Assembly (NCBI RefSeq): GCF_030013595.1
Contig: NZ_CP122768.1
Source of the DNA: Escherichia coli
GTDB taxonomy: Bacteria; Pseudomonadota; Gammaproteobacteria; Enterobacterales; Enterobacteriaceae
Length of the DNA: 64,000 nucleotides
Reading direction: 5' to 3' (one strand)
This document shows, piece after piece, positions 3,939 to 63,994 of this stretch. The notes beneath the pieces are model-generated. The model made no database searches. It had not been told where the DNA came from and was given only the letters and a program-made list of their open reading frames with translations. Both the position numbers and the translations under genes were made by a program. The first letter of the stretch is position 1; each line of letters begins with the position of its first letter.

Positions 3939-4283
3939 GCGGCAAAGAGGAATGTGGGGACAGGAGAAAATCAGGTACCGGATATGAACAGCTTTGGTAA
4001 CTCATTGACCGCCAATGGATACCAGAAATTACCTGGGGGGATGATTATTCAATGGGGGAGTTTTTCTGTCTCACCAACCGGAGGAAGTGTTGGAACAGTT
4101 GATATAACATTACCTGTAGCTTTCCCTGCTGCTTGTCGTTCGGTAAACGCTCTTATTTCAACTAATGATCCTTCTGCCCGTTCTGTGGGCTTTGATATTG
4201 GAAGTACCAACAGAACTAAAATCAGATTTACTTACACTTCTGCTACAACAAATTCAATTTACTGGATGGCTGTGGGGTATTAA
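3939..4283 (+). CDS. alternative tail-fibre C-terminal cassette, silent in the present orientation
   Basis: The frame is open through the left crossover site (..INVGLGEAAKRNVGTGENQ..). Inversion would fuse it to the constant N-terminus ending ..ALENLGLGE. Confidence 0.75.
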   Translation, partial: AAKRNVGTGENQVPDMNSFGNSLTANGYQKLPGGMIIQWGSFSVSPTGGSVGTVDITLPVAFPAACRSVNALISTNDPSARSVGFDIGSTNRTKIRFTYTSATTNSIYWMAVGY

Positions 4284-41598: not shown

Positions 41599-41622
41599 GT
41601 TTATTTCCTGATTCAGAAAACA

Positions 41623-45464: not shown

Positions 45465-45475
45465 AAGCATCTCCT

Positions 45476-45503: not shown

Positions 45504-45522
45504 TGAATGGCAGATCCCCGGA

Positions 45523-47513: not shown

Positions 47514-47525
47514 ACATTTCTCCCA

Positions 47526-47549
47526 TAAAAAAACCGCCCTCAGGCGGTC
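47526..47549 (-). terminator. terminator between the fibre operon and the sheath operon
   Basis: Minus strand reads CCGCC-tgag-GGCGG followed by TTTTTTTAT. Confidence 0.7.
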
Positions 47550-47567
47550 AGATGATTAACTTCTTTT

Positions 47568-48113: not shown

Positions 48114-48115
48114 GA

Positions 48116-50959: not shown

Positions 50960-51290
50960 TTTTTATCTCCTCGAGTCGAATCGTATCCTGAGTTTCGTTA
51001 TTCACCCCGACAAGCGTCAGCCACGCGCTTCCTTCTCCTGTCCACGTCACTTCCACCCGCCGGAGAGTCAGGCGGGGTTCCCAGCGTTCAAGGGCGGTTA
51101 CCGTTTCGCGAACAATTCTCACCCGCGTGAAATCATCCTGTGGGTTATCAAGCAGACTGAAAAGTCTGCTGCCGTATTCCCTGAGCAGGACCCGGCTGCC
51201 GGCCGGTGTTGACAAAATATCAGTGACGGACTGGCGCAGATGTTCGTTACCGTGCAGATATCTGCCGGTGGCTGAATCAATACCAATCAT
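50934..51290 (-). CDS. P2 gpW-like baseplate protein (gp25 family)
   Basis: 118 aa, ..SVTDILSTPAGSRVLLREYGS.L..L.D.P. Confidence 0.85.
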   Translation of the reverse strand: MIGIDSATGRYLHGNEHLRQSVTDILSTPAGSRVLLREYGSRLFSLLDNPQDDFTRVRIVRETVTALERWEPRLTLRRVEVTWTGEGSAWLTLVGVNNETQDTIRLEEIKIGNVSGNY

Positions 51291-51323
51291 GTTGTTTATT
51301 CCGGAAAAAGAACTGAAAGGAGA

Positions 51324-51947
51324 TTACATTTGCTGACCAGGCTGTCCGGTGCTGCCACCACTGTCGCCCCGGTGATTGTGACCGTTATAGACAATTCTGA
51401 TTTGACTCATCGTTCCGTGATAATCAGAAACCTCACCACCGACCATCAGATCCGCCTTAACCACCGCCTCAGCATTCATGGTTGCTTTACCCTGTACGGT
51501 CAGGGTATCTGTGATTTCTACCGGACCGTCCAGGGTTCCCCTGCCGGTAATTTTATAGCTGCCGCCTTCAGCCAGCGTGATGGACAGGGCATTAGCCTGA
51601 CGGTCGTAACGGATTTCCGTTCCGGTATCAAACAAAATAACATGTTCGTATTCACTGCCCTCAGGGACAGGAATGGCGTCAATATTGGCCCCCGGATACA
51701 CCCGACCGTTACGCAAATCGCCCGCCTCCGATATCACTGTAACGGCATCTCCGGGAGCCGGGTAATTACTGACCTGCATGTAGCGCCCGGACTGTACCTG
51801 AATCCAGGGCAACGGAGGCGAAAGCACATCCCCGATATCCACCCGAACCATCACCGGGCTACCCGGGATCACCTCGTCCACCACGCCGCGACGGACCATG
51901 TCCGCCACCCTGCGGCGTAACTCTGCCACTTCATCTGCCAGACTCAT
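51324..51947 (-). CDS. P2 gpV-like baseplate spike
   Basis: Internal ATG 51947 (MSLADEVAELRRRV..). C-terminus IVYNGHNHRGDSGGSTGQP. The upstream 98 codons overlap the preceding gene. Confidence 0.85.
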   Translation of the reverse strand: MSLADEVAELRRRVADMVRRGVVDEVIPGSPVMVRVDIGDVLSPPLPWIQVQSGRYMQVSNYPAPGDAVTVISEAGDLRNGRVYPGANIDAIPVPEGSEYEHVILFDTGTEIRYDRQANALSITLAEGGSYKITGRGTLDGPVEITDTLTVQGKATMNAEAVVKADLMVGGEVSDYHGTMSQIRIVYNGHNHRGDSGGSTGQPGQQM

Positions 51948-52497
51948 CACCGGTGCCCTCTGTTTTCCAGATAAGACGATAATCCCGCTCATGTTTCTTG
52001 CCGGTTTCCGGAGCTTTCCCCAGCCAGACTTCCTGTAAAGGCGCACCAGCCGGAACCTCGAACGGATCTTCTCCGACAGGAATATCCTGTTCAAAAGAAA
52101 CGCGGAAAACGATGTAGTCATCCAGAAGCCGGTCGAAGGTATCCACCTCAGCATCAATAAAAACAGCCGGATCAACGTTATCCAGCCCGAACGTGGCCCC
52201 CTCAATCCAGTCAGATAAATCCATCGCCAGACAACGGGCAAAAATCTGCGGTTTTGGCACGTTTTCCGTCTTCCCGGCCCGGTCTGTCACCACAAACAGA
52301 TCACATTTCAGCGTGACCCGCGTCTGCCCGTCGGCAAACTGAGCCTTGTCCCAGCCCGGTACATCCACAAACACGGCAGGCGTCACCAGTTGCGTCACTT
52401 TTTCCGGATACTCATCGGCATCTTCCACCCAGGGAATTTGTTTCAGACTGTCAATCACCGCCTGATGCCAGGCGCCCATCATCAATGGCTCCATCAC
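51931..52497 (-). CDS. tail completion/terminator protein (U-like)
   Basis: Synteny between the lambda-type neck genes and the P2-type baseplate genes. Confidence 0.5.
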   Translation of the reverse strand: MMEPLMMGAWHQAVIDSLKQIPWVEDADEYPEKVTQLVTPAVFVDVPGWDKAQFADGQTRVTLKCDLFVVTDRAGKTENVPKPQIFARCLAMDLSDWIEGATFGLDNVDPAVFIDAEVDTFDRLLDDYIVFRVSFEQDIPVGEDPFEVPAGAPLQEVWLGKAPETGKKHERDYRLIWKTEGTGDESGR

Positions 52498-53216
52498 TCC
52501 AGCCCCTTAAATACCCGGAATTTCAGTTCATGCTCAAAATTTTTCAGGATCAGTGCTTCCGCATCCGGAAAAACAAAATCCTCTATACGGTTCAGCATGG
52601 CTTCATAAATATCAATTTCCGCTTCACGCACCCTCCGTCGTCCGGATGCCTGTCGGATCAGTATCGTTTTCCTTTTTGATATACGTCCGTTACGATTTTC
52701 CGCTTCGAACTGGTTGATAAAGGCATCATCCGTTGACCAGGTGGTGACAGGCAGGGATTCCCCGGCAGGTTTAAAACTGATCTCCCGAGCCTTCCTGCGG
52801 CTGGAAGCTGGTGCAAAACGCCCCCGCTCATCGCGCAACTGATGGCGTTCGCCGCGTCGTCCCCCACTGATGCGTCCGCGCAGATCGCGTACTTTGATGG
52901 CGTTCAGACCGAACCATACCTTCGCCTCATCAAACTCATCACCGTTACGACGAATGATAAAATTATGCAGAACACGCTTTTTGATCATTTTCTGACTGCG
53001 TGGCGCAACCTGTTTTTTAAACTCTGCCAGGGCCTTCATCCGCAGTGCAGACGCGGCTCTTTTCAGCGCCACGCCCCAGGCTTTACGGATCTGACTTTTT
53101 GACCCACCCAGTTTAGCGATAATTTTCAGCACCTCATCTTCATCAATATCGACAACGAGGTTTCGTGCCAGCCGTCGCTGCCGGGCACTGCTTCGTTCAT
53201 GCTCTCTGACTGCCAT
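52494..53216 (-). CDS. tail completion protein (lambda Z-like)
   Basis: Start at ATG 53216. Basic protein; loose resemblance to gpZ. Confidence 0.45.
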   Translation of the reverse strand: MAVREHERSSARQRRLARNLVVDIDEDEVLKIIAKLGGSKSQIRKAWGVALKRAASALRMKALAEFKKQVAPRSQKMIKKRVLHNFIIRRNGDEFDEAKVWFGLNAIKVRDLRGRISGGRRGERHQLRDERGRFAPASSRRKAREISFKPAGESLPVTTWSTDDAFINQFEAENRNGRISKRKTILIRQASGRRRVREAEIDIYEAMLNRIEDFVFPDAEALILKNFEHELKFRVFKGLE

Positions 53217-53604
53217 AACGTTTACTCGGTCGTTCCGGTGCAGCAGGTGTATTTCTCCCGGGCTCTCCACGCGCAAGGGTGATGGTAATCACCCCCTGAC
53301 CCGCAGCGCCTGACTCATCCCAGCCGGGATCGACTACCTGATAGGGTTCGCCGTGGATCATGACCCTGTCATATTTTTTCAGACCGGCGGCCCATGCGCT
53401 CCGGGTAAATAACACGGGCGCAGTATCACGAATTTCGCCGCTGCCAGTGTTCATCCCGGTGTTATCTGCCGGGGCATCAAAAACGGCACGGATTTTTCTT
53501 TCCGTGCCGCCCGGATATATGCTGATTTCCGTCCCCATCGTATCCAGGATGATGTCATCCGCATCACTCATGGCCTGATCGAACAGATTATCGAACATCA
53601 TCAC
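53197..53604 (-). CDS. lambda FII-like head-tail joining protein
   Basis: FDNLFDQAMSDADDIILDTMGTE here versus lambda FII FDNLFDAAIARADETIRGYMGTS. Confidence 0.8.
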   Translation of the reverse strand: MMMFDNLFDQAMSDADDIILDTMGTEISIYPGGTERKIRAVFDAPADNTGMNTGSGEIRDTAPVLFTRSAWAAGLKKYDRVMIHGEPYQVVDPGWDESGAAGQGVITITLARGEPGRNTPAAPERPSKRYGSQRA

Positions 53605-53966
53605 TCCCGGATTTTTTCTGCCAGACCGTCTGCCAGCAACGCGGGAACTGTGGCTTCATTAACCAGCACAACACTGGAGGCCCGGGCAAACATCAACATT
53701 TTTCCCGTCACAGCATCACAGGCTGGCATATGCGCCGTTTTCAGCATACGCACCCGGGCGAGTCCCTGCTCAGAATGCATTCCGTCGCCGGATGCATCGT
53801 TGCCCACCTCTTCCTTCCCCGTCTCCTCCCCATCGAATCCAGCGGCCTCCTCCTCCCATTCCGCCAGACGCTGCTCAAGATCGGCTTTTGAACCTGAAAT
53901 ATCTGCTTCACGCCCCAGAATCACTGCCAGTTCCTGCAAACGTTCAGTCATCTGCTCTTTTGTCAT
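53601..53966 (-). CDS. lambda FI-like DNA packaging protein
   Basis: MTKEQMTERLQELAVILGREADISGSKADLEQRLAEWEEE here versus lambda FI MTKDELIARLRSLGEQLNRDVSLTGTKEELALRVAELKEE. Confidence 0.8.
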   Translation of the reverse strand: MTKEQMTERLQELAVILGREADISGSKADLEQRLAEWEEEAAGFDGEETGKEEVGNDASGDGMHSEQGLARVRMLKTAHMPACDAVTGKMLMFARASSVVLVNEATVPALLADGLAEKIRE

Positions 53967-54016
53967 CACATCTCTCCCGTGCGCTAAAGAAAAAGGCGGG
54001 AATATCCCGCCCTGTC

Positions 54017-55045
54017 TTATTTCACCTGAACCACCACAAACGCATCCGGATCCGGCAGCACCATCAACGGCGCAGACTGCGTCATTGTATATTCGCAACC
54101 AGGATCCCCCACTTCCTCCCAGTGTTTCGGATAACGAATCGCAGAGGTGATCCCTTCACTCAGCGCCTGATTATCCTGGATTGCGCCATAGCAACGGACG
54201 CCCTCCGCCTGAGTGTTTCCCAGAATCAGTGTACCTTCCGGCAGATAACGCTGTTCATCCCCGTTTTCGTCAACATACGTTGTCTTCGCCACCACGACAG
54301 CCAGATCGCCGTACCAGCCCTTAAAGGAAACCACGGAACCCAGGTCTTTCAGTGCGGTTTCCAGCTCAGATTTGGAGCCACGGCGGGTATCCAGTTTTTC
54401 ACGGAACAGTTTAAAACCGTTCAGCATACGCCAGACCGTGCCGTCCATAATCGCGATATTGATGGTACCGGAAGCAAAATCGCAGTACGCATCAAGATCA
54501 TGCGTCGGATCAAAGGTGTCAGCATTCTGCTTTGACCATTCGCGTCCGCCAGCCTGCGTAATGTTATTGGCGGCAGAACGCCCAAAATCCACTTCCACCG
54601 TCTCAAACTGCTCGCCGCTCATAGTGTATTTACCCTGCAGAACAGCACTGACTGCCTGCATTTCTTCCACCTGCACAATCGCCTGCTCTTCCTGTTTCAG
54701 GTTGTCCGTCAGAATACGCAGACGGCGGTAAGCCGGGTCATTAAGGCGGGCCGGATCTTCCCCCGGAAGACGTTCTACAGCCTGCTGATAATCAAAGCGG
54801 TGTTTTGGTTTTACATAACCGGGACGTAACACGCGGGTTTCACCACCACGGCTGCGCAGCACTTTGCCTGACACCACCGGAGACACATACGCCGCAACCG
54901 GTGTTTTGCCGGTAATTTTATCCAGCATGACTTCCTGAGTATGGAAAGTGATCGTGCGACGAAAGAACAGCTCAAGAAACAGCGCACGAAATTTCACTTT
55001 CTGCTCGGTGTACCCGAGTAACTGACGCGTGGTAAATAACCCCAT
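54017..55045 (-). CDS. lambda gpE-like major capsid protein
   Basis: Collinear with lambda E over the full 342-aa length. Confidence 0.95.
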   Translation of the reverse strand: MGLFTTRQLLGYTEQKVKFRALFLELFFRRTITFHTQEVMLDKITGKTPVAAYVSPVVSGKVLRSRGGETRVLRPGYVKPKHRFDYQQAVERLPGEDPARLNDPAYRRLRILTDNLKQEEQAIVQVEEMQAVSAVLQGKYTMSGEQFETVEVDFGRSAANNITQAGGREWSKQNADTFDPTHDLDAYCDFASGTINIAIMDGTVWRMLNGFKLFREKLDTRRGSKSELETALKDLGSVVSFKGWYGDLAVVVAKTTYVDENGDEQRYLPEGTLILGNTQAEGVRCYGAIQDNQALSEGITSAIRYPKHWEEVGDPGCEYTMTQSAPLMVLPDPDAFVVVQVK

Positions 55046-55062
55046 AATTTATATTCCTTCAG

Positions 55063-55083
55063 AAACACAAACGGGCCGCATCG
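55063..55083 (-). terminator. hairpin between the decoration and capsid genes (same position as in lambda)
   Basis: Minus strand reads ACGGGTCGC-gat-GCGGCCCGT followed by TTGTGTTTCT. Confidence 0.4.
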
Positions 55084-55114
55084 CGACCCGTTTTTTCAGT
55101 TAATCACTTCACCA

Positions 55115-55450
55115 TCAGGCGTGGCTGATGGCACTTCCCACAAATGCGTTGGCTTTTTTCACCGCATCCACCGAACCAGGCCAGACCAGCGACTCAGTGG
55201 CAAACGTACCGCTTTTGTAGTACGTCAGCATGGGCTCGGTCCCGGCAAGCGCCAGAGCCAGCACACCCACAGCCGTTCCGGCTTTCTGACCATCCCAGAC
55301 AACCAGTTTTCCGGTGGCGTCATCCACCATCAGTGGCGTCAGTGCAGGTGTGGCAGCACTGATACCACTGGTGGCTGTTGCGGTATGCGCCGGATCGCTT
55401 CCGGCAAAAATGCGCGCATCTGCACGCTTTTCCGTGGTGGTTTTAATCAT
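55115..55450 (-). CDS. lambda gpD-like head decoration protein
   Basis: SDPAHTATA....SA..PA.TPLM.D....KLV.WDG...G.AVG.LA...YKSGTF. Confidence 0.93.
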   Translation of the reverse strand: MIKTTTEKRADARIFAGSDPAHTATATSGISAATPALTPLMVDDATGKLVVWDGQKAGTAVGVLALALAGTEPMLTYYKSGTFATESLVWPGSVDAVKKANAFVGSAISHA

Positions 55451-55488
55451 TTTTCAGCCTCCTGATTTATCTGAATTCCGGATATCGC

Positions 55489-56199
55489 TTACGGCATACT
55501 CATCAGCAGGTCTTCCTCACCGCGCCCGGCAGTTCCGCCACCGGAAACCGCACTGGCAGCATGCTGTGCCATAAAGCGATCAAAAAGTGTTTCCTGTGAC
55601 GGTTGCGATGCCGCCGGCGCGGCTGCCAGCAGCGTTTTCGCCTGCGCCACCGTCATTCCCGGTTGTTCTGTCAGTGCCTGTGCAAGTTGCTCGCGCCCTT
55701 TTGCCTCCGGCAGCGCCATAATCTGATCGCCGACACTTGCAGAACCAGCAACCGGTGCCGCCGCCAGTAACGTTTTGGCCTGGTCAACGGTCATTCCCGG
55801 CTGTTCAGCCAGCGCCTGCGCGAGTTGTTCACGCCCTTTTGCTTCCGGTAACGCCATAATCTGATCGCCTGTGCCTGCAGCACCAGCAGCAGGGGCTGCC
55901 GCCAGAAACGCTTTCGCCTGCTCCACCGTCATCCCCGGCTGACCTGCCAGCATCTGTGCCAGTTGCTCACGCCCCTTTGCTTCCGGCAGCCCCATAATCT
56001 GATCGCCCGTGCTGTCAGTACCGGCAACCGGCGCAGCTGCAAGCAACGTTTTCGCCTGCTCAACCGTCATTCCTGGCTGACCTGCCAGCATTTGCGCCAG
56101 TTGCTCGCGCCCTTTCGCCTCCTGACAATTCAGGATCCCCATCACGCGCTGATTTTCCTGGGCCACCGCTTCAGCAACGGTGAGATTTTTAACAGTCAT
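55489..56199 (-). CDS. nested in-frame scaffold protein (lambda Nu3 analogue)
   Basis: In-frame ATG at 56199, preceded by AAGGAGA at 5-nt spacing. Same arrangement as lambda C/Nu3. Confidence 0.55.
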   Translation of the reverse strand: MTVKNLTVAEAVAQENQRVMGILNCQEAKGREQLAQMLAGQPGMTVEQAKTLLAAAPVAGTDSTGDQIMGLPEAKGREQLAQMLAGQPGMTVEQAKAFLAAAPAAGAAGTGDQIMALPEAKGREQLAQALAEQPGMTVDQAKTLLAAAPVAGSASVGDQIMALPEAKGREQLAQALTEQPGMTVAQAKTLLAAAPAASQPSQETLFDRFMAQHAASAVSGGGTAGRGEEDLLMSMP

Positions 56200-57105
56200 T
56201 GCATTCTCCTTCGTAACAGAGTCATTCAGTACAGAAACCATCACTTCAACGGCATCTGCAGCATTAATCAGTTGATCAGCCAGGCCTGCATCAATGCCTG
56301 CCTGACCGTCATAAACGGCAGCCTCGGTATTCATCACCGCCTCTGAACTCAGCCCCGTATAAAGCGCCACCTTGTCGACAAACATCCGGCGGGCCTCATC
56401 AATACGGCGCTGAAAATCTGCACGCACACCTGCCGGCAATGCCTGAATACTGTTGCCGTCAACCTTATGCTGCCCGGAGTAAATCAGCGTGATGTCCACC
56501 CCTTCCTGTGCCAGTTGTTTCTCGTAACTGGTGTGCGCCATCATCACGCCAATCGAACCAATTTTTGCCGTCTGCGTGACCAGCCGACGGGTACAGGCTG
56601 CCGCCAGCAACATGGCGGCTGAACAGGCCATGTCATTACACAGCGCCCACACGGGCTTCTGTTCCCGCAGACGGTAAATCATGTCAGCACAGTCAAACGC
56701 CCCGGCAGCCTGACCGCCCGGGCTGTCGATATCCAGCAAAATGCCGCGCACATCCGGATCATTCACCGCCATCTGAAGGCGGGCCGTCAGGCCGTCATAG
56801 CCAGTCATGCCGGAGTAAGGCCGCAGGGTACCCAGTTTATGCACCAGCGTGCCGCTCACCGGAAGAATGGCGATGCCATTCTTCACCTGGTAACTCTTTG
56901 CCGGACGCTGACCGCCCGCCATATAGTCAGTCACAGCCAGTTGCATACCATCAGCATCAAGCTGAACAGCCTGCTGAGGAACGGCAAGGCTGCCGGCACC
57001 CATCTCTTTACCCAGCGCGCAAAAGAAAACCCGCGCATAGGCGGGTTCCAGTAAAAGCGGCTCATTAAATGCCATGGCGGCAATATGCGATAAATTACGA
57101 CGCAT
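55489..57105 (-). CDS. lambda gpC-like prohead protease (S49/ClpP-type) with scaffold C-terminus
   Basis: IAAMAFNEPLLLEPAYARVFFCAL... is collinear with lambda C. The C-terminal part contains four 46-aa repeats. Confidence 0.92.
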   Translation of the reverse strand: MRRNLSHIAAMAFNEPLLLEPAYARVFFCALGKEMGAGSLAVPQQAVQLDADGMQLAVTDYMAGGQRPAKSYQVKNGIAILPVSGTLVHKLGTLRPYSGMTGYDGLTARLQMAVNDPDVRGILLDIDSPGGQAAGAFDCADMIYRLREQKPVWALCNDMACSAAMLLAAACTRRLVTQTAKIGSIGVMMAHTSYEKQLAQEGVDITLIYSGQHKVDGNSIQALPAGVRADFQRRIDEARRMFVDKVALYTGLSSEAVMNTEAAVYDGQAGIDAGLADQLINAADAVEVMVSVLNDSVTKENAMTVKNLTVAEAVAQENQRVMGILNCQEAKGREQLAQMLAGQPGMTVEQAKTLLAAAPVAGTDSTGDQIMGLPEAKGREQLAQMLAGQPGMTVEQAKAFLAAAPAAGAAGTGDQIMALPEAKGREQLAQALAEQPGMTVDQAKTLLAAAPVAGSASVGDQIMALPEAKGREQLAQALTEQPGMTVAQAKTLLAAAPAASQPSQETLFDRFMAQHAASAVSGGGTAGRGEEDLLMSMP

Positions 57106-58666
57106 CGACTTTTTCTCCCGTTGTCTGTCGGATCTGCTGCTGAAACGTGTCCTTTATCCAGATGGGGCGGGGAAGACCCGCTGCCTGTCGCTCCTGGCTT
57201 TCACGCAGTTGCTGGCGGAAAATCTCCTGATAGTCATCGCCCATCAGGGCCAGCTCTTTCTCATACGTGCTTAAACCACCTTCAATACGCATCACCGCTT
57301 CCTGCACTTCCTTAAGGCCATCAATCGCCATGCGACCGGCACCAATCCACTCGGCACGACACCATCCGGAACGGGCCTCCCAGAATGAAAAACGGGATTT
57401 CGGCGGGCGGATCACACCGCGAATAAGTGCTTCCTCCAGCCAGCAGGCAAACATCTGTGATGCCAGTCGACTGGCCACAAATTTTCGTTTGCCCATAAAA
57501 TACCGCCACGACTCATTGGCGGATGCCCTGGCACTGGAATAACTGACCTGTGAATAATCACGGGAAAGCTGTTCATAGGACACCCCCAGTCCGGCAGCGA
57601 TGTAACGTAACAGCGCCTTTTCCAGTTCAGAGAAACCATTATCTGCATTCTGCGCTGTCTGCAGATTCAGTGAATCCCCCGGATAAAGATGCGGAATACG
57701 GACCCCGCCCAGCTTTACCGTATTGGTGGCGTAATAACGCGCGTAGCCTTTCATGATGGTGTTCAGGGGATTTTTACCGCCATCTCCCACCCCGGCGATA
57801 TATTCAAATGCTTTTTCCGAATCCAGCGTGGATTCAATCGTCGCGGCATACATCGCCCGCACCACCGCCGACTGCAGTTGCGTGGCCTGCAGTGTGTCGA
57901 GCATCTTGAGGCGCTCCATGACAGAATAAAACTGGTTGGCCCCGCGCGTCTGTCCGTCCTCCTGCGGCTGAAACACATGGATCATTCCCGGTCGCCCGGA
58001 GGGCAGCGTCGCCGCAATCCGCGTCCAGTTGCTGACACCGTAACCGGGCCAGTCATCTTCCTGAACATGGTAGGCCAGTGCTTTTCCGTACCGGTTGATT
58101 TCCACCCCGGCACGCATAAAACGATCGCCGGTACCATAACCGGGTGTACTGACACGTTTCGGGCTGATGGTTTTGAATTTCGTCCGGAATAATGACGTGG
58201 ATTCCGTATCCCATACGGGCTGGACAAAAATTTCACCGTTAAATGTATGAACGCCCACCCCTTCACGAATAAATTCGGTAAACGAGCGACGCCCCTCCAC
58301 ATCCATCGAACCAAACACCGGATCGCAGAATTCCATCCACGCCGCCTCCACATCTTCAATAAAGGCATGTGAATCGGCTTCCGACATCCCCAGCCAGCGC
58401 CAGTTGGGCCGGTAACTCAGACGAAACATGTGTCCGACGATATGGTCTTTATGAATTTCAACGGCGTTTGCGGCAATACCGTTATTGCGGACCAGATCAT
58501 CCGCACGGGCGTTACCCAGCTGAATGGAAGGTAAGAGCGCCACGTCGGCACTTTCCGGTGCAGGCAGCCATTCCGCAAGCTGCCCGCCAAATCCGGTACC
58601 CCCTCCGGAATACCCCATACTCTGCCGCAGTGGCTGCCCGTGAAGATCCACCAGTTCCCCGTTCAC
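57095..58666 (-). CDS. lambda gpB-like portal protein
   Basis: 523 aa, collinear with lambda B. Confidence 0.95.
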   Translation of the reverse strand: MNGELVDLHGQPLRQSMGYSGGGTGFGGQLAEWLPAPESADVALLPSIQLGNARADDLVRNNGIAANAVEIHKDHIVGHMFRLSYRPNWRWLGMSEADSHAFIEDVEAAWMEFCDPVFGSMDVEGRRSFTEFIREGVGVHTFNGEIFVQPVWDTESTSLFRTKFKTISPKRVSTPGYGTGDRFMRAGVEINRYGKALAYHVQEDDWPGYGVSNWTRIAATLPSGRPGMIHVFQPQEDGQTRGANQFYSVMERLKMLDTLQATQLQSAVVRAMYAATIESTLDSEKAFEYIAGVGDGGKNPLNTIMKGYARYYATNTVKLGGVRIPHLYPGDSLNLQTAQNADNGFSELEKALLRYIAAGLGVSYEQLSRDYSQVSYSSARASANESWRYFMGKRKFVASRLASQMFACWLEEALIRGVIRPPKSRFSFWEARSGWCRAEWIGAGRMAIDGLKEVQEAVMRIEGGLSTYEKELALMGDDYQEIFRQQLRESQERQAAGLPRPIWIKDTFQQQIRQTTGEKVDAS

Positions 58667-58872
58667 AGCCCCACTCCTGCCGGGCCGCGACGCCGTCCGG
58701 ATACGCCCAGCGCACTTTCCAGCTCTTCAATATACTGACGCAGTTCACCAATCGTCGCCCGCGAATACTGAACCTGACGCCCGTCCTTGCTGACGGAAAC
58801 CACAGCACGTCCGATCATCAGTTCATGTAATGCCCGGCGGGCATCACAAAGCATTTCATGCGTATAAACCAT
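58663..58872 (-). CDS. lambda gpW-like head-tail joining protein
   Basis: 69 aa; ..ARRALHELM.G..V..V.KDGR.V.Y....I.EL..YI.ELE. Confidence 0.9.
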   Translation of the reverse strand: MVYTHEMLCDARRALHELMIGRAVVSVSKDGRQVQYSRATIGELRQYIEELESALGVSGRRRGPAGVGL

Positions 58873-58875
58873 TCT

Positions 58876-60792
58876 TTATCCTCCACTCAGTGCAGCCGCG
58901 ATTTCTTCCAGACTCATCTCATCGTCGTCCTGCTCATCTCTTCTGGCACGGGCCAGTGCTTCAAGATCCAGCTGCCACCGCTGAACTGAAATACGCAGGG
59001 CAGCATAGGCATATACCAGGCAGTCGAGGGCTTCGTTGCGTCGCCCTTTTTTATCCCACAGCAGTTTCACCCTGCCATTAACCACCTTCTCCACCAGCTC
59101 TTCCGCCACGATCTGACGCGCCTCTTCTTCCGAAAAAATGTCGGGGTTATCAGGAAAACGGAAGGTGTACGGGGCGGCTTCACTGGCAGAGACCACTGGC
59201 AGGGCAAAACGGGCGTACAGCATTTCCTTGACGGTATCGGAGCCCACCTCACACAAAAACACACCACGCTGGTTGCGCTTTTTGGGCATGGTGATCACCG
59301 GCTTGCCGTACACCGATGCCCCTTTTATGGGAAGCACAAAAAAAGTGCCGTGTTTCCTTGAACGCTGATACACAATGTCCTGGTCGATACCACCGGTATC
59401 CCAGCAGACACGGGAAATGGAAATTTCAGTACCGTCAGCATGACGATATTTTTTCCGGATCACCGTATCAACACGTTTAAGGGTGTCCTCGTCTTCCGGT
59501 CGCCCCATGATAATTTGCTTATCAATCAGAAAGGCTTCTTCGCCGGGAGCCCAGCCCCAGACATAAATTTCATAGCGATCTTTCTGGGAGTCGATCCCGG
59601 CGGTCAGGTAAACCACCCGCAGGGGAACCTGCGCACCATAGTGGCAGACCTTTTCCAGTAACAACTCAAAACTCAGCTTTTCTGCCACAGCCTCTTCATA
59701 GGGCTCCCCGAGCGTGGTGTTAATAAACGTCTTGACGCCGTTCGGATCCTTCAGCGCATCCAGCCAGTCATAAACAATCTGTACCCAGGTGGTGAACGGA
59801 CTATACGCCGTCCAGATGTGGAAAGTGACGGAGCGCGGCGGTGGCATCTCCTCATCGCCGGCGCTGTAAAATGCCAGGCCGTCGCGCGTCCACATCCCGG
59901 TATTGTCACAAATCCAGCGCCCGTCGGTCTGGTCAAGTTCCGACTGCCGGATCACACAGCCATTATGTTCACACAGGTAATACACCGTTTCCGGTTTACC
60001 CTTCTCCCATTTCAGGCCAAATGGCGTCGCATCATCGCCAAACTTCAGATACTGGGCCTCCCCGCAATGAGGGCAAGGGACATAAAACCGCATGAAATGC
60101 GCTGATTCATTTGCGGCTTTCTCAATCTGGCAGGAGCCTTTAATTTTTGGCGTTGAGCCACGTATGGATTTAGGCCATACCGAGCCTTCGATACGCTTAT
60201 CGCCAAGCAGCGTCGGCGAACCTTCTTTTTCCACATCCGGTTCAAACGAGGAGAGTTCGTCATAGCAGACCACATCCACAGATTTTTCACGGTAGTTTTT
60301 AGCAGCGGCGCCGCCAAGGCACCAGAAACCCACACCGGAGGAAAAACGCTTCAGGGTGAGTGTATTATCGCGGTGCTTTCTTCCGAACCATGGAGCCAGC
60401 TCCAGCAATGCAGGAACATCCCTGATCGTTGGCTCAACATGAGATTTCATGAAATCTTCTGCAGCAGAATCTGTTGGCTGAAAAAGCAGACTGTTACGGG
60501 ATTTATGCTCAATAAAATAAGCCTCCACCCCCAACAGCATTTTGGTGTAACCAACGCGCGCCGATTTAATCAGATTAACGGTGCGGATCCGGTCATTTCC
60601 CATGCTGTTCATAATGGCAACCTGAAACGGCAGGGTTTCCCATTGTCCGGGAGTGTATGAAGATTCTTTCGGCAGATAATAATGTTGATCAGCCCACTGA
60701 ACCGTCGTCAGTGGAACCGGAATATTGAGAGATAAAAGCCCTGTAGCTATCGCACCGGCTGCATTAGCTGCCTTCTGTGCGTCTGAAATCAT
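58876..60792 (-). CDS. lambda gpA-like terminase large subunit
   Basis: Collinear with lambda A ([15 protein letters not shown]...). The ATG at 60792 is preferred and overlaps the Nu1 end, as in lambda. Confidence 0.95.
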
Positions 60793-61312
60793 CAATCCAC
60801 CTGCCCACGTTTTCACCGGCTTTAGCTGCAACATTGGAGGCTTTCGCGATTTCAGTTTTCACCACATCAAGGTGTGACGGTGAAATATCCGGATATTTAC
60901 GCTGTAATGTCAGCGGCACACGTACAAGTATCCCCGAAATCTCCTGTGCCACACGTTGCAGAATGAAGGTAAACAATTCTGTTTCCAGCACCAGCCCTTC
61001 TTCACGGGCATTTTTCAGCTCCTGTGCGTCAGCCTGTGCTTTGGTTAACCGGTAGCGTTCATAGTCAATGGTGCCGGGTTGTAAATCTGATTCTGCAGTC
61101 GCACGCAAATCTTCCAGTTCTTTGCGGAGCTTTTCGTTTTCGATATCTTTTTCCCGCTGCGCATACCACTCAATGGCTTCTGCAGTATTGAACATGGCTT
61201 CGATACCTTTGCCTCCCCCCGACAAAACTCTCAGCCCCTGACTTTGCCAGCCAGTGATTGTTCTGACATCGCACTCAAAAATTTCCGCCAGTTTCTTTTT
61301 GTTAACCTTCAC
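60764..61312 (-). CDS. lambda Nu1-like terminase small subunit
   Basis: [34 protein letters not shown] here versus lambda MEVNKKQLADIFGASIRTIQNWQEQGMPVLRGGGKG. Confidence 0.95.
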
Positions 61313-61327
61313 GGCACATATTCCTCA

Positions 61328-61445
61328 CAAAAAGAAGAAAGGATCTCAAAACGCTTTTTTCAGCGAAAAATCACCGCTGCCAGATCCTTTCTTTTTTTAA
61401 GAAAACTCTATTAAACAACAGGTTAGCCAGAAGAAGAACGGATCT
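61328..61445 (-). promoter_or_regulatory. cosB-like terminase binding region (R3, R2, R1 repeats)
   Basis: Minus strand has AGATCCGTTCTTCTTC (R3), AAGAAAGGATCTGG (R2, inverted) and GAGATCCTTTCTTCTTTTTG (R1). Order and spacing match lambda cosB. Confidence 0.7.
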
Positions 61446-61486
61446 GCTTTTTCCCTGAAAATTTTCATAAATAGCGCGTTTTTGCG

Positions 61487-61498
61487 CGTCCCCAGACC
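61487..61498 (-). other. predicted cosN 12-nt cohesive end (GGTCTGGGGACG on the minus strand)
   Basis: Aligned to lambda GGGCGGCGACCT using the flanks ACGGGTCCTTTC (upstream) and GCTATTTATGAAAATTTTC (downstream), both conserved here. Confidence 0.6.
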
Positions 61499-61612
61499 CT
61501 CGGTGTTTCAGGTTCCAGAAAGGACCCGTTGAAATGGGAGTAATTATCATTTACACGCTCTAACACCTGCATTATCGCAACCCCTCACACAGAAGGGCTG
61601 CTGTAATGCCTG

Positions 61613-62011
61613 TTACTCACGAATCAGGCGAGCACTCTTACCATTCATTTCAATACGCGAATACTGCGGTTTACCATCAATGATGTCTGTCATCACGAAC
61701 ATCTCACCCGGCTGCAGTTCAACTACTGCGCCTTCCGGCAATTTCATGCAGGCAAATACCGGACAACCAGGATGACGATCATCTTCTGTTGCTTCCAGCA
61801 TTGACTCACCAAACCACTCCGTCGTGGCGCGACCATCAGCTGCTTTGTAGTGGATCAAGTACTGGTTTTCGCCATCCGCATACTGCGCGCGGGCTTTAAC
61901 CTCACCCCATTCATCACTGATGCGCATCTCCACCAGTTGAGACAACTCAAACTTAAACGGAGCAGCATCAGCACCAATTACAATCGGTTTGCTTTCTGTT
62001 TTTTCCATCAT
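61613..62011 (-). CDS. hypothetical protein between the lysis region and cos
   Basis: 132 aa; AGGAGA precedes the start; no recognisable motif. Confidence 0.6.
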   Translation of the reverse strand: MMEKTESKPIVIGADAAPFKFELSQLVEMRISDEWGEVKARAQYADGENQYLIHYKAADGRATTEWFGESMLEATEDDRHPGCPVFACMKLPEGAVVELQPGEMFVMTDIIDGKPQYSRIEMNGKSARLIRE

Positions 62012-62182
62012 CGTCTCCTGATATCAAAGCCCGTCGCCGCACCGGGCACTGATCAACATTTGAGTATTCGCGGCGACAGAAAGAATTTATTTTATTGAGT
62101 AGCCACAAACACAGAATTTCATGCTTTCCGGACGCTGGCGCACTCTTCATTTTTCAGCAAAATATTCTGCTCTTACAGGCGA

Positions 62183-62359
62183 TCAGTTCTGCAGACACTG
62201 CCGAACACCGTCGACAATTTCACAGACCAGAGAAGCGGTATCGAAAAGCTGGCGCGCTTTATCCAGGCTGACGCATCCCACCAATAAAAAAGGCACCAGT
62301 ATCGCTACCCATTTCGCCGCCGTTCGCGGCATTCTGTGTGTCCAGTGTTTTCGCGTCAT
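62183..62359 (-). CDS. small lipoprotein (58 aa; not in the ORF track)
   Basis: Hand translation gives MTRKHWTHRMPRTAAKWVAILVPFLLVGCVSLDKARQLFDTASLVCEIVDGVRQCLQN. Lipobox LLVGC; three more Cys in the mature part. Confidence 0.55.
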   Translation of the reverse strand: MTRKHWTHRMPRTAAKWVAILVPFLLVGCVSLDKARQLFDTASLVCEIVDGVRQCLQN

Positions 62360-62360
62360 A

Positions 62361-62474
62361 TCACCACCAACGCACAGCCCAAATCAGAACAGCGACCGCC
62401 ACAAGGCGAATTGCAAAGGCCGCAGCCCTTGTCAAATCAAGGCTCGCGGGAGTTTCCACTTCAATACCTTTCAT
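62361..62474 (-). CDS. 37-aa single-TM peptide (not in the ORF track)
   Basis: MKGIEVETPASLDLTRAAAFAIRLVAVAVLIWAVRWW. The stop is 1 nt before the lipoprotein ATG (TGAtATG). Confidence 0.45.
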   Translation of the reverse strand: MKGIEVETPASLDLTRAAAFAIRLVAVAVLIWAVRWW

Positions 62475-62566
62475 AATGGACAACCTCAAAAAGAATCTTT
62501 TATACTTTCCCACGAGGATTTTCTCCGTACTCACTACTCACAATTTCCTCTCTGACGTGAAAACTC

Positions 62567-62607
62567 AAAACCCCGGACTGTTCCAGCAGCCGGGGTTTTG
62601 TTTTTTT
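62567..62607. terminator. bidirectional rho-independent terminator
   Basis: AAAACCCCGG-13 nt-CCGGGGTTTT, with T-runs on both strands. Confidence 0.75.
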
Positions 62608-62887
62608 ATTTACTGCCCTGGGTGCGGCATCTGGCTATTTCACCCCTGGCTTTACTGTCACCGCGACAGATACAACGCACCGTGTCTCCGGTCAACGTGG
62701 TAATGTAAGCCTCATCCTCTTTTTCTACCGGAATACATGGAATATCCCCGCCCCGGCAATACTCAATTTTTGCTGCAAGATGAGTGTCACGCGGATAGAA
62801 CTCCAGACGATACATATCTCCCAGGACATGCACTTCCTCAACCTGGCGACCATCCTCAGTTACGGTAATTTTTTTCAGTGCGTACAT
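62606..62887 (-). CDS. Cys-rich hypothetical protein (93 aa)
   Basis: ATG at 62887 with a GGAGG 5 nt upstream. The gene is bracketed by terminators. Confidence 0.6.
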   Translation of the reverse strand: MYALKKITVTEDGRQVEEVHVLGDMYRLEFYPRDTHLAAKIEYCRGGDIPCIPVEKEDEAYITTLTGDTVRCICRGDSKARGEIARCRTQGSK

Positions 62888-62919
62888 ACGTACCTCCGTT
62901 CTTTCGTTTTTTGAGCAAT

Positions 62920-62942
62920 AAAAAAGCCGCTCATGGCGGCCC
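62920..62942 (-). terminator. terminator immediately after the endolysin gene
   Basis: Minus strand reads GCCGC-catga-GCGGC followed by TTTTTTATT. Confidence 0.65.
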
Positions 62943-62957
62943 TGTATGTTTTGCAAG

Positions 62958-63341
62958 CTATCGCTTCAATTGAAAATGAGGCCCGTCTTTCAGTGTTTTC
63001 CAGTCCCCGCCCCATTCGATGGCAGTTCCCAGCTCTGCGGCAGCCTGCTTAAATGCCTGCGCGATTTTCTCGTACAGAGGCCAGTCCCATGACACCTGGC
63101 TGCCAACCCAGGCCACAACATCCACCGCATCACCGGTCAGGTGGCGGCTGTTCATGGTCTGGCTCTTACCTTCTGCAACCAGCTGTTTCTGGCGTTCTTT
63201 CGTGCGCAGGCCCTCCGTAATACCGAAATCAACCTCCGACAGTTCAAGGGCGCGGCGAACTACAGCAACCAGCTGTGGTTTGACGCCTTCCAGATTTTTC
63301 TCGCTCCGGCGGCTGAATCTGAATTTACCCGACATATTCAC
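62958..63341 (-). CDS. endolysin, peptidase M15 (L-alanyl-D-glutamate peptidase / VanY-like)
   Basis: SRHLTGDAVDV ... DGPHFQL zinc-ligand motifs. Confidence 0.85.
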   Translation of the reverse strand: MNMSGKFRFSRRSEKNLEGVKPQLVAVVRRALELSEVDFGITEGLRTKERQKQLVAEGKSQTMNSRHLTGDAVDVVAWVGSQVSWDWPLYEKIAQAFKQAAAELGTAIEWGGDWKTLKDGPHFQLKR

Positions 63342-63574
63342 CTCAACAATGGAAAGATTCTTGTGACGTTCCCGCGTGCGCGTATCACCAGCACGCAGAA
63401 CAGCAGATTAAAAAACACATCCAGCCAGCCCGTTGCTAACGGGCGACCACACAGATAGCTGAGAGGCGAAAAGGCATACAGCAGCGTCAGCAGCCAGGCC
63501 AGCCATGACATCAGCGGTTTATGCCTGGAATCGCGACGACGATAAAAAAGAGCGTCAGCACGATAACCGTGCAT
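63338..63574 (-). CDS. small two-TM lysis-cassette protein (holin/antiholin-like)
   Basis: Hydrophobic segments. Overlaps the endolysin start. The true start may be the internal ATG (63511). Confidence 0.5.
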   Translation of the reverse strand: MHGYRADALFYRRRDSRHKPLMSWLAWLLTLLYAFSPLSYLCGRPLATGWLDVFFNLLFCVLVIRARGNVTRIFPLLR

Positions 63575-63601
63575 AACGCCACATTCAGTAATCCGGGAAG
63601 G

Positions 63602-63994
63602 TTACTTAACATTACCGCCTCCTCCGCCTCGCAGGCGGGAGAACCGTCCTGACACCAGCGATGCGATATCCTGCTGGTGGATGAACGACAGAATCTTCAC
63701 CGACACCACAGACACCAGCACTGCACACAGCGCGTCGACAGATTTACTGTGAAGCCCCAGTTTTTCGACCAGATAAGACGCCATCACATCCGCCCCCAGT
63801 ACGCCGATAATAAACGACACCAGAAAATGCGCCGCCACCCGCCAGACAGAAAGCGCCTGCGGCATCGTTGCCACAAACAACGCCCCCGCGAACGCACCAA
63901 ACACAATCCCGAAATCCGTTCCGGTGAACAGCCCGAATACCGTCGCCCCTCCGAGCGCAGCCGCCGTGCCGGAACCGGATAAGGGTTCAGACAT
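63602..63994 (-). CDS. putative holin (multi-TM)
   Basis: 130 aa with 3-4 hydrophobic segments and a charged C-terminus, upstream of the endolysin. Confidence 0.6.
   Translation of the reverse strand: MSEPLSGSGTAAALGGATVFGLFTGTDFGIVFGAFAGALFVATMPQALSVWRVAAHFLVSFIIGVLGADVMASYLVEKLGLHSKSVDALCAVLVSVVSVKILSFIHQQDIASLVSGRFSRLRGGGGGNVK

Follow-up and report, generated by a model that had tools for sequence, protein, structure and literature searches.

Phage lysis of Gram-negative bacteria ends with disruption of the outer membrane, which is the step least understood, and the accepted solutions to it are either proteins that bridge the periplasm (Rz/Rz1, gp11) or cationic peptides (gp28). Lambda Rz1 needs Rz, and we know of no lone o-spanin that is functional. 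Colicin lysis proteins permeabilize the envelope without a dedicated partner, in dependence on the phospholipase OMPLA, and for some of these the signal peptide is functionally important. Lambda also carries bor between its lysis genes and cos. Among the Stx phages, Rz has been reported in 277 of 279, with a metallopeptidase endolysin pham in two (PMC8136144). For phage phiP27, Kongari et al. 2018 list a homolog of the lipoprotein discussed here as an o-spanin of the “separated” two-component type (PMC6139136, supplementary file 5) and pair it (20706..20861) with a 64-aa i-spanin ORF, while allowing that other topologies, including a C-terminal TMD, are possible for an i-spanin (PMC6139136).

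Here, we consider two small neighboring genes, ORF1 and ORF2, in a 64,000-nucleotide stretch of Escherichia coli DNA (the window; contig NZ_CP122768.1), with the relevant coordinates collected in Table 1. A preliminary description of this DNA had proposed a 37-aa TM peptide followed, 1 nt further on, by a 58-aa lipoprotein ORF, and both are present as described, on the minus strand. They are not unannotated, as had been thought: RefSeq/PGAP carries both as hypothetical proteins, WP_001305859.1 (37 aa) for ORF1 and WP_001138285.1 (49 aa, with the start at Met10) for ORF2. On balance, we favor the reading that ORF2 is a late-expressed, partner-less outer-membrane-disruption lipoprotein that closes a phiP27-type lysis cassette, and that ORF1 is a coupled accessory.

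Table 1. Features at and around ORF1 and ORF2, in order of position in the window.
Feature	Position	Strand	Remarks
132-aa ORF, phrog_1935	61613..62011	-	Unknown-function family, no TM; 3′ of the lipoprotein gene, before cos and terS
ORF2, 58-aa prolipoprotein	62183..62359	-	Lipobox, selection and phrog_7528 match
ORF2 mature peptide (predicted)	62186..62275	-	30 aa, CVSLDKARQLFDTASLVCEIVDGVRQCLQN
ORF2 start codon, ATG	62357..62359	-	1 nt from the ORF1 stop
ORF1 stop codon, TGA	62361..62363	-	
Shine-Dalgarno-like GGTGGTGA for ORF2	62361..62368	-	Made up of ORF1's final codons and stop (…TGG TGG TGA t ATG)
ORF1, 37-aa peptide MKGIEVETPASLDLTRAAAFAIRLVAVAVLIWAVRWW	62361..62474	-	ATG start; C-terminal TM-like segment
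GAGG Shine-Dalgarno for ORF1	62484..62487	-	10 nt 5′ of the ORF1 ATG; kept in both ORF1 lineages
Intrinsic-terminator-like hairpin	62566..62600	-	Stem of ~14 bp, A-run and U-run flanks; -25.7 kcal/mol for an 81-nt segment, z = -2.4
93-aa ORF, phrog_33497	62606..62887	-	Unknown-function family; moron-like insert between endolysin and ORF1
Endolysin, Peptidase_M15_4 family	62958..63341	-	
Second holin, Phage_holin_3_7	63338..63612	-	In this window, broken by the loss of 1 nt from a T-run
First holin, Phage_holin_8	63602..63994	-	

ORF2 is a conserved coding gene under purifying selection with a lipobox. Whether the two frames are conserved had been left as a point to check, and both are kept in relatives, with pN/pS of 0.11 for ORF1 and 0.19 for ORF2 (compared to 1.06 and 1.85 for the two remaining sense frames of the latter). 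The textbook lipoprotein signal that had been noted in ORF2 is seen as the lipobox LLVG/C29, at the end of a signal peptide of residues 1–28 with a conserved n-region, MxRKHWTHR. The mature part, in turn, differs in its cysteines from what had been described (29 aa with three further cysteines): it comprises 30 residues including the lipidated cysteine, and the only cysteines of ORF2 are those at positions 29, 46 and 55, which gives two beyond the lipidated one, both conserved. All three are invariant across the family. Selection is stronger still on the mature part (pN/pS 0.13), and the signal-peptide n-region shows unusual conservation at the protein level (pN/pS 0.16, with pS 0.30). An ATG start is found in 88 of 88 copies, and the length is 183 nt in 53 of 56 distinct coding sequences. 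Homologs have V, T, I or A in place of Met10, which is thus unconserved, whereas M1-x-R-K-H-W-T-H-R hardly varies; the first ATG, which the preliminary description had used, is a better start than the one annotated.

At positions +2/+3 of the mature protein, 104 family members carry VS, 11 AS and 4 VT; the +2 residue is V, A, T, S or G across the family and never Asp, a pattern that by the E. coli Lol rule would predict sorting to the outer membrane. The mature peptide is predicted to be helical and amphipathic, with no proline, a heptad hydrophobic seam and no hydrophobic segment over its 30 residues (mean Eisenberg hydrophobicity of about 0), and AlphaFold2 returns a single long helix with a pLDDT of 66 (moderate confidence). 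On an ideal helix, the C-x8-C spacing of C46 and C55 would set them 180 degrees from each other, and any disulfide they form is putative. Net charge in the family ranges from -3 to +3.

The family of ORF2 (phrog_7528, E = 1e-34) is narrow and enterobacterial. A profile search run exhaustively over 1.84 billion representatives returned 23 proteins, all of them obvious relatives, with no link to any characterized family. Neither ORF1 nor ORF2 matched Pfam, NCBIfam or PADLOC (for ORF2, nothing in Pfam at E ≤ 1), the PHROGs matches are to function-unknown families only (phrog_4493 for ORF1), and a literature search by the RefSeq and PHROG identifiers of both gave no match. No Rfam family scored above threshold, and the subthreshold matches fall on the terminator hairpin. 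Two plus-strand ORFs were also considered as genes and rejected: a 58-aa ORF (62095..62271), the frame of which has a pN/pS of 1.8, and a 144-aa ORF (62121..62555), which is not open in relatives.

The position of ORF2 was surveyed in 85 loci with at least 1.5 kb of upstream sequence. A same-strand endolysin lies close 5′ of ORF2 in all 85, ending no more than 869 nt upstream in 84 of them. In 38 loci the gap is at most 20 nt and the endolysin directly abuts ORF2 with no TM ORF at all; the count rises to 39 with L070, where the endolysin overlaps the ORF2 ATG by 4 nt. The association is independent of the other lysis genes, holding for two holin systems and two endolysin classes: hol8+hol3_7 holins with an M15 endolysin (52 loci), the same holins with a GH108 endolysin (27 loci, plus L070), and a lambda-S-type holin with M15 (3 loci) or GH108 (1 locus). 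In every locus that we examined, the lysis cassette ends with ORF2, and homology breakpoints coincide exactly with the Shine-Dalgarno and ATG of this gene, marking a module boundary. ORF2 itself is ~90% identical and stays with the lysis cassette, while the downstream terminase and packaging genes are 30% to 99% identical or replaced. The interval from endolysin to cos is a known moron hotspot, which in related phages holds LT-IIb toxin genes, a K88 fimbrial-like gene and an LPS phosphatase gene.

In the window, both genes lie behind a terminator hairpin, which counts against a role of ORF2 in lysis here. This hairpin had been described as a strong bidirectional terminator, and with its A-run and U-run flanks it could indeed act in both directions; another scan gave a partial match. 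Two terminator-like hairpins lie on either side of the 93-aa ORF, and this ORF is missing where the endolysin abuts the lipoprotein gene. No sigma-70-like promoter was found on the coding strand between 61300 and 63400, and a related prophage encodes a Q antiterminator. We note that the second holin is frameshifted in the window, and therefore this particular prophage may not lyse normally.

The pN/pS of 0.11 for ORF1 compares to 1.5 and 3.1 in the other sense frames, with the three distinct sequences available amounting to effectively one deep comparison. A GTG at 62534 would extend ORF1 to 57 aa, while the form that is conserved and called elsewhere is that of 37 aa, which is found on >2500 contigs. 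Its C-terminal hydrophobic segment, AAFAIRLVAVAVLIWAV, has a mean Kyte-Doolittle value of 2.45 over 17 residues. From its sequence, the border of the two genes is a translational-coupling junction. ORF1 is optional, being absent from over half of the ORF2 loci: about half of the loci have a small TM peptide immediately 5′ of ORF2, belonging to one of at least four types, and about 40% have no upstream TM peptide of any kind. In the Stx-type prophages L092–L097, an ORF1 homolog (86% identical) is followed, again after 1 nt, by Rz (PF03245), within which Rz1 (PF06085) is embedded; ORF2 and Rz are preceded by the identical junction, TGGTGGTGAtATG, and homology stops at the ATG. ORF1 is likewise followed by Rz in L005, where tandem arrays of ORF1-type peptides lie between endolysin and Rz. 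ORF2 thus sits in the slot that is held by Rz/Rz1 behind the same ORF1 in other prophages.

Taking these observations together, we suggest the following course of events. Q-antiterminated read-through would transcribe ORF2 together with the late lysis genes, and the ORF2 product would be lipidated and delivered to the outer membrane's inner leaflet, where it probably forms a disulfide-linked coiled-coil oligomer. Once the endolysin has removed the peptidoglycan, ORF2 would weaken or breach the outer membrane, taking the place of a spanin with no bridge across the periplasm, in a manner that would be nearer to that of a colicin lysis lipoprotein than to Rz/Rz1. ORF1 is a separate small membrane peptide, optional and with its TM segment at the C terminus, and its last codons may provide the ribosome-binding site for the next outer-membrane-disruption gene, i.e., ORF2 here and Rz/Rz1 in the Stx-type prophages; its most likely role is in tuning expression or timing, and not that of a structural partner. 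More tentatively, and with the balance leaning somewhat against it, ORF2 may be a self-sufficient disruptor, that is, a Cys-stapled, lipid-anchored helix of 30 residues that has no inner-membrane subunit and does not span the periplasm. The case for ORF2 as a disruption lipoprotein draws on its position and on co-occurrence.

The relatives that lack the lipoprotein are also of interest in this context. Ten of 75 hol8-type cassettes (13%) have no ORF2, and in these 10 no lipobox or Rz-like ORF was found as a replacement, such that the idea of another spanin taking its place was not borne out; resident prophages, at least, can thus dispense with ORF2, and some of these are possibly defective. 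In P88, which has a related M15 endolysin and no lipoprotein, the endolysin is followed by a weak match (E 8e-4, below the Pfam cut-off) to DUF2570, which we take to be Rz-like. GER2 carries ORF1 together with Rz/Rz1, and its copy of the lipoprotein gene is a remnant with a frameshift; from this single case it is possible that the lipoprotein is redundant where Rz/Rz1 is present. Decay in the presence of Rz stays anecdotal: GER2 fits, and no Rz is seen in three loci whose family members are truncated.

An alternative that we consider unlikely, although it deserves attention, is that ORF2 is a moron with no role in lysis, namely a lysogenic-conversion or exclusion lipoprotein like Bor, Cor or Llp, as the preliminary description had also entertained. 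The position of ORF2 is equivalent to that of lambda bor, toxin, fimbrial and LPS-modifying morons share this interval in related phages, and both the cassettes that lack ORF2 without replacement and the terminator in front of it in this window would be compatible with such a role. However, we see no promoter-like site on its strand, and the tight junction with the endolysin stop in 38 loci (39 with L070), together with a Shine-Dalgarno of its own, is typical of an operon member. Furthermore, ORF2 remains linked to the lysis genes while packaging varies, which is unexpected for a blocker of the phage's own receptor, ORF2 and Rz/Rz1 swap cleanly, and ORF2 matched no Pfam family (at E ≤ 1) and no PADLOC model.

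Should ORF2 instead be the o-spanin of a true two-component spanin, its inner-membrane subunit would have been missed, whether this is ORF1 or another C-terminal-TM peptide, the phiP27 64-aa ORF, or a distant or host protein. This is an improbable explanation, albeit one with some attraction, as phiP27 has been cataloged in just this way with latitude for other i-spanin topologies, about half of the loci have a TM peptide directly 5′ of ORF2 (the ORF1 type being translationally coupled), and two conserved periplasmic cysteines are a spanin hallmark. No Rz-like gene had been noticed after the endolysin, and none was found there; nor did the 88 lipoprotein loci (L001–L089 minus L005, plus the window) yield a match to Rz or Rz1, and the lipoprotein loci examined showed no conserved type-II (N-terminal TM) ORF or u-spanin alongside ORF2. 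The published Stx-phage counts given above are in agreement. We also scanned a whole prophage, that of E. coli ETEC1732, as a proxy that is only 96% identical to the window, and repeated the scan on the window, which excludes the early region. The related prophage contains no type-II membrane ORF anywhere, and ORF2 is the only credible lipobox ORF in it and in the phage part of the window by a regex and hydrophobicity scan. The 64-aa TTG-start ORF of phiP27 occurs in phiP27 only, with a 43% partial match in L056, where an antisense 90-aa ORF is better conserved; this “i-spanin”, which belongs to the shortest two-component spanin of the 2018 survey, is probably not a gene, which would correct the published assignment.

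Turning to ORF1, this cannot be regarded as the partner of ORF2, because more than half of the loci lack it and it also precedes ordinary Rz/Rz1 pairs, which are complete and have a TMD of their own. In addition, in the loci where the endolysin abuts ORF2, no TM ORF lies between the two. The 30-residue mature peptide cannot span the periplasm, which also counts against a spanin-like ORF2, and adding the at most ~16 extramembrane residues of ORF1 leaves the pair far too short. A partner may be encoded elsewhere in the genome or supplied by the host. The earlier proposal of a noncanonical spanin is thus retained for ORF2 alone, for which it is the best supported of the options offered (by position, slot and the phiP27 listing), and is dropped for ORF1.

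We regard it as similarly improbable that ORF2 and/or ORF1 modulate lysis instead of executing it, by regulating the timing of holin or endolysin from the periplasm or the membrane, for instance, as an antiholin-like or lysis-inhibition factor. Both genes are tied to the lysis cassette, and the tandem arrays of ORF1-type peptides in L005 and the conserved n-region of the ORF2 signal peptide could be read in this way; ORF2, however, occupies an effector slot, and it is kept with two holin systems and two endolysin classes that are unrelated, which speaks against its regulating either one specifically. Finally, that the two form a small membrane toxin/antidote pair, as had been offered and as two tiny, adjacent and coupled genes, one of them hydrophobic, might suggest, is very improbable, since the genes occur independently of each other (ORF1 on thousands of contigs with Rz in place of ORF2, and ORF2 without ORF1 in over half of its loci), and no toxin–antitoxin match in PADLOC or Pfam and no antisense RNA in Rfam was found.

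A lone lipopeptide of 30 residues in the Rz/Rz1 slot, with varied holins and endolysins and no conserved partner, suggests an alternative way of disrupting the outer membrane. If ORF2 is indeed self-sufficient, it would constitute a further class of disruption protein beside two-component spanins, unimolecular spanins and disruptins, and if it permeabilizes the outer membrane by itself, it could be of interest to work on antibacterials that target this membrane. Our analysis also draws attention to the very common 37-aa ORF in front of Rz in Stx prophages.

Among the known systems, the closest is the cataloged o-spanin of phiP27, which is of the same family as ORF2 (~90% identical, and 93% with the 60-aa form of the family) and shares with it the lipoprotein character, a 30-residue, mostly helical periplasmic part and the same cassette. 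The catalog places its start at Met10 (51 aa) and gives it a 64-aa partner that is absent here, in an assignment that is itself predicted (PMC6139136). Lambda Rz1 resembles ORF2 in its ~60-aa precursor, lipobox, predicted outer-membrane sorting, periplasmic cysteines and place at the end of the lysis cassette. Unlike Rz1, ORF2 has no i-spanin gene embedded, overlapping or adjacent, and its mature part is predicted to be helical and lacks proline, of which Rz1 has 10 in 40 residues. Alignment of the two with hhalign covers the signal peptide and lipobox only (probability 46%), and neither Pfam nor hhalign gave any homology of mature ORF2 to Rz1 (PF06085); profile comparison with Lpp likewise aligned the signal peptide and lipobox only.

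T1 gp11 is, like ORF2, a single gene in the lysis cassette with an N-terminal lipobox; however, at 133 aa it is beta-rich and has a C-terminal TMD in the inner membrane, while ORF2 has no second hydrophobic segment and is too short for the periplasm. The phiKT gp28 disruptin is also a single small protein with an amphipathic helix, and it replaces spanins (bioRxiv 10.1101/515445), but it is cationic, similar to an antimicrobial peptide and not lipidated, in contrast to ORF2, a lipoprotein of a family with net charges of -3 to +3. Bor and Cor/Llp are phage-encoded outer-membrane lipoproteins, as is predicted for ORF2, although Bor is larger and non-homologous and is transcribed in lysogens from a promoter of its own, and the linkage of Cor and Llp is to tail or receptor-binding genes, whereas ORF2 is operon-coupled to the endolysin. 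The colicin lysis proteins/BRP (PF02402) differ from ORF2 in belonging to colicin operons rather than a phage lysis cassette, in having Gln at +2 and in not being Cys-rich, and hhalign against ColE1 Kil covers the lipobox only (probability 16%), with no Pfam Lysis_col match. By analogy, we consider these tiny lipoproteins, with mature parts of ~28–35 aa compared to 30 in ORF2, to be the best model for how ORF2 may act.

The window region is a phiP27-like lysis-to-cos segment, in which the minus strand is the coding strand for every gene treated here. The structural genes (41208-61174) share 98.8% identity with the prophage of E. coli ETEC1732, and the lysis region, which is mosaic, 96%. The second holin (Phage_holin_3_7; relatives have 91 aa) lacks 1 nt of a T-run near 63540 (−), T6 in the window vs T7 in ETEC1732, leaving ORFs of 33 and 78 aa; the deletion may truly inactivate the gene, or else stem from a slippery homopolymer or a sequencing error, and because of it the window's prophage copy may be lysis-impaired. 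The Phage_holin_3_7 match is likewise shortened at locus L012. The 132-aa ORF (no TM, no Pfam match) lies ~170 nt downstream of the lipoprotein in more than half of the loci, and in E. coli 99-3165 (locus L005) a shortened copy comes after Rz.

Features of the lysis-to-cos segment of the window
Feature	Coordinates	Strand	Remarks
Holin, Phage_holin_8	63994-63602	-	
Holin, Phage_holin_3_7	63612-63338	-	frameshift-split in window
M15 endolysin	63341-62958	-	
93-aa ORF (phrog_33497)	62887-62606	-	
Terminator-like hairpin	62600-62566	-	
ORF1	62474-62361	-	37 aa, hydrophobic segment C-terminal
ORF2	62359-62183	-	58 aa, lipobox LLVG-C29
132-aa ORF (phrog_1935)	62011-61613	-	
cos, then Nu1-type small terminase	61312-60764	-	followed by large terminase

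ORF1, with its C-terminal hydrophobic segment and a TGA stop 1 nt ahead of the ORF2 ATG, and ORF2, with its lipobox, are built as first described. Two statements of the preliminary description need correction: ORF2 has Cys at 29, 46 and 55, so that two rather than three accompany the lipidated one, and the ORFs are not unannotated, as PGAP has both as hypothetical proteins in a genome with an identical ORF1-ORF2 region and each falls in a PHROG family (phrog_4493 and phrog_7528, no assigned function). The proposed comparison with relatives supports both reading frames. Across 56 distinct coding sequences from related loci, the ORF2 frame has a pN/pS of 0.19 (1.06 and 1.85 in the other two sense frames), with the strongest constraint in the mature part (0.13), and 53/56 are 183 nt long. 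Plus-strand ORFs overlapping ORF2 were rejected, their frames being unconstrained, or closed in relatives. For ORF1, pN/pS is 0.11 (1.5 and 3.1 in the other sense frames; three distinct sequences), which is effectively one deep comparison between phiP27-type and Stx-type lineages; among the 19 family members viewed, the amino acid changes are conservative swaps inside the hydrophobic segment. The ORF2 start codon is ATG in 88/88 copies, M1, R3, H5, W6, T7, H8 and R9 are invariant, a Shine-Dalgarno sequence (GGTGGTGA or AGGTG) is kept 4-9 nt 5' of this first ATG in every context, and Met10, the start chosen by PGAP and Kongari et al., is V, T, I or A in homologs; judged from these alignments, the conserved start is the first ATG. 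ORF2 is thus a real, conserved gene for a predicted outer-membrane lipoprotein, and ORF1 a real, widespread (its 37-aa form occurs in thousands of contigs), optional small membrane peptide. The lipoprotein has no annotation in phiP27 or in Actinobacillus phage vB_Apl-pPE4; in the phiP27 locus (L001), gene L32 (NP_543084, 3981..4136) lies in another frame and overlaps the start of the lipoprotein ORF (4024..4212).

The ORF2 family is narrow, with 131 clusters at 90% identity and just 23 representatives in an exhaustive profile search of 1.84 billion proteins, and all members with a source name are from Enterobacteriaceae. Under the Lol rule of E. coli, lipoproteins without Asp at +2 are sorted to the outer membrane, and ORF2 is predicted to be so sorted since Asp never occurs there in the family. 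AlphaFold2 models the mature peptide (about 30 residues, zero proline) as helical with moderate confidence (pLDDT 66). The peptide has an unbroken 3-4 hydrophobic seam (A7-L10-A14-V17-V21-V24-L28) and a hydrophobic moment of 0.45-0.65 over 18 residues; 25/30 residues are helical in the phiP27 homolog in the tables of Kongari et al. (PMC6139136). The invariant Cys pair is spaced C-x8-C, which on an ideal helix would place the two on opposite faces and so favor intermolecular over intramolecular disulfides. The signal-peptide n-region M-x-R-K-H-W-T-H-R (62333..62359, codons 1-9) is nearly invariant, with a pN/pS of 0.16 while synonymous sites vary (pS 0.30), which is unusual in signal peptides and may point to controlled processing, or to the signal peptide having a function once cleaved.

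Upstream sequence of 1.5 kb or more is available for 85 loci, and in every one of them an endolysin lies close upstream of the lipoprotein on the same strand, ending within 869 nt of it in 84; the gap is at most 20 nt in 38 (39 with L070, where the endolysin overlaps the lipoprotein ATG by 4 nt). The hol8 and hol3_7 holins occur with an M15 endolysin in 52 loci and with a GH108 endolysin in 27 (plus L070), and a lambda-S-type holin (Phage_holin_3_1) with M15 in three and GH108 in one, these four loci having a divergent lipoprotein subfamily (only 48-57% identity). Each of the two holin systems is thus seen with each of the two endolysin classes, and the lipoprotein, like spanin genes, is tied to no one type of holin or endolysin. 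Neighbor-sequence homology ends at the lipoprotein SD/ATG; the terminase module 3' of it ranges from 99% down to 30% identity, or is replaced, so that the gene moves with the lysis cassette and not with the virion module.

The position is one that spanin genes occupy elsewhere. Stx-type lambdoid prophages have, in this order, NanS-p, class II holin, lysozyme, ORF1 (86% identity) and Rz (i-spanin, PF03245) with embedded Rz1 (o-spanin, PF06085); the spacing from ORF1 to Rz is 1 nt, as to ORF2, and the junction TGGTGGTGAtATG is identical before both, divergence starting past the ATG. E. coli 99-3165 likewise has ORF1, then Rz. Between its lysozyme and Rz (L005 2513..3062) lie four tandem small ORFs (47-57 aa, the last called 28 aa by PGAP), all polar at the N-terminus and with a hydrophobic segment at the C-terminus, and across prophages this position is taken by at least four peptide types of the kind. 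In P88, which has a related M15 endolysin, the endolysin is followed by a weak match (E 8e-4, under the Pfam cutoff) to DUF2570, which we take to be an Rz-like family. Among Stx phages, Rz is present in 277/279 and the metallopeptidase endolysin pham in just two (PMC8136144). GER2 (MG710528) has a frameshifted lipoprotein remnant without the lipobox Cys (L099 2980..3180), 3' of an intact ORF1-Rz/Rz1 and an LPS core heptose(II)-phosphate phosphatase moron; decay of the lipoprotein where Rz is present was set aside as an anecdote, three other loci with truncated copies showing no Rz. On balance, we favor with moderate confidence the reading that ORF2 would be the outer-membrane-disruption gene of the phiP27-type lysis cassette, acting with no recognizable partner. 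Against it stand the width of the periplasm, too great for a 30-residue peptide to bridge, and the inactivity of lambda Rz1 on its own.

Directly upstream of the lipoprotein is the endolysin in ~34 loci, an ORF1 type in ~27, one of at least three other unrelated small TM-segment peptides in ~18, and other genes in the remaining loci. Given these varied neighbors, and ORF1 ahead of complete Rz/Rz1, ORF1 and ORF2 are not an obligate pair, which makes a dedicated ORF1-ORF2 spanin unlikely; the noncanonical spanin suggested earlier is best supported for ORF2 alone, by its slot and cassette linkage, and is improbable with ORF1 as partner. The final ORF1 codons (…CGT TGG TGG TGA) are the ribosome-binding site of the next gene. 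Going by this junction, ORF1 is predicted to be translationally coupled to whichever outer-membrane-disruption gene comes next; the simplest inference is that ORF1 would couple or tune its expression, and it may possibly have a membrane function of its own.

That ORF2 is instead a moron or exclusion lipoprotein is a less probable reading, albeit one with some substance. The endolysin-to-cos interval is a moron hotspot, as confirmed by a K88-fimbrial-like gene in L101 (4986..5774) and the LT-IIb enterotoxin genes of SerU-LTIIb (L187, 4982..6131). Among hol8-type cassettes with enough downstream sequence, 65/75 have the lipoprotein; in the other 10 the interval is deleted, replaced or occupied by LT-IIb toxin genes and no substitute spanin is seen, so that the lipoprotein is not indispensable to the resident prophage. 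Against a moron, the lipoprotein stays with the lysis cassette, and no sigma-70-like promoter is found on the coding strand at 61300-63400. The ORF1-ORF2 mRNA would likely come from late read-through transcription; the ETEC1732 prophage encodes a Q antiterminator. Just 3' of that gene, outside the window (L090 6399..6899; ETEC1732 2990398..2990898), at the stx gene position of Stx phages, is a gene for a very basic, Cys-containing protein of 161-166 aa (start-dependent) with a cleavable-looking signal peptide. The hairpin reported as a terminator before ORF1 (62566..62600) is real, and a second terminator-like hairpin comes after the endolysin. The 93-aa ORF (62606..62943 region, −) looks like an inserted moron because it sits between the two; it has a weak, sub-threshold PDDEXK_14 match and is absent in every locus where the endolysin abuts the lipoprotein.

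A missed inner-membrane partner is doubtful. In its favor, Kongari et al. (2018) catalogued the phiP27 spanin as two-component and "separated", both subunits being singleton families and their combined periplasmic length of 62 residues the survey's shortest (PMC6139136). Supplementary file 5 places the o-spanin at 20706..20861 and the i-spanin at 20348..20542 (PMC6139136). The former is the 51-aa MPRTAAKW…CLQN lipoprotein, an ORF2 homolog, and the o-spanin label of the family thus already existed, from computation only. The latter (L001 3699..3893) is a 64-aa, TTG-start ORF antisense to a 90-aa ORF; it is conserved in none of the other lipoprotein loci (80 IMG/VR loci, 3 genome loci and several annotated records), and where a single 43% partial match occurs, the antisense ORF is better conserved. 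No collected lipoprotein locus matches Rz or Rz1, the cassettes and their surroundings share no conserved ORF that combines one N-terminal TM with a periplasmic tail, and ORF1 also stands ahead of Rz/Rz1. The PGAP annotation of the related ETEC1732 prophage contains neither a spanin nor a lysis protein, and our scans there left ORF2 as the sole credible lipobox ORF and turned up no type-II membrane ORF that was credible; the outcome was the same for the window's phage part, bearing out the earlier observation that no canonical Rz-like i-spanin follows the endolysin. As the published partner is not conserved and the TM and Rz searches were empty, it is very probably not a gene, and the call probably false, in which case the 2018 survey loses its "shortest two-component spanin" data point. 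In these genomes, the lipoprotein has no recognizable phage-encoded inner-membrane partner.

A regulatory role for ORF2 is comparably improbable, the lipoprotein being kept with either holin system and either endolysin class, and the toxin/antidote pair once proposed is effectively excluded by the independent occurrence of ORF1 and ORF2. Pfam and profile comparisons gave no homology of mature ORF2 to Rz1, colicin lysis proteins or Lpp. Net charge in the family is −3 to +3, and ORF2 is not a cationic peptide, unlike phiKT gp28. The o-spanin label was already known; the present evidence indicates that ORF2 may work without an i-spanin, for which the lambda Rz/Rz1-amber system is a direct test.
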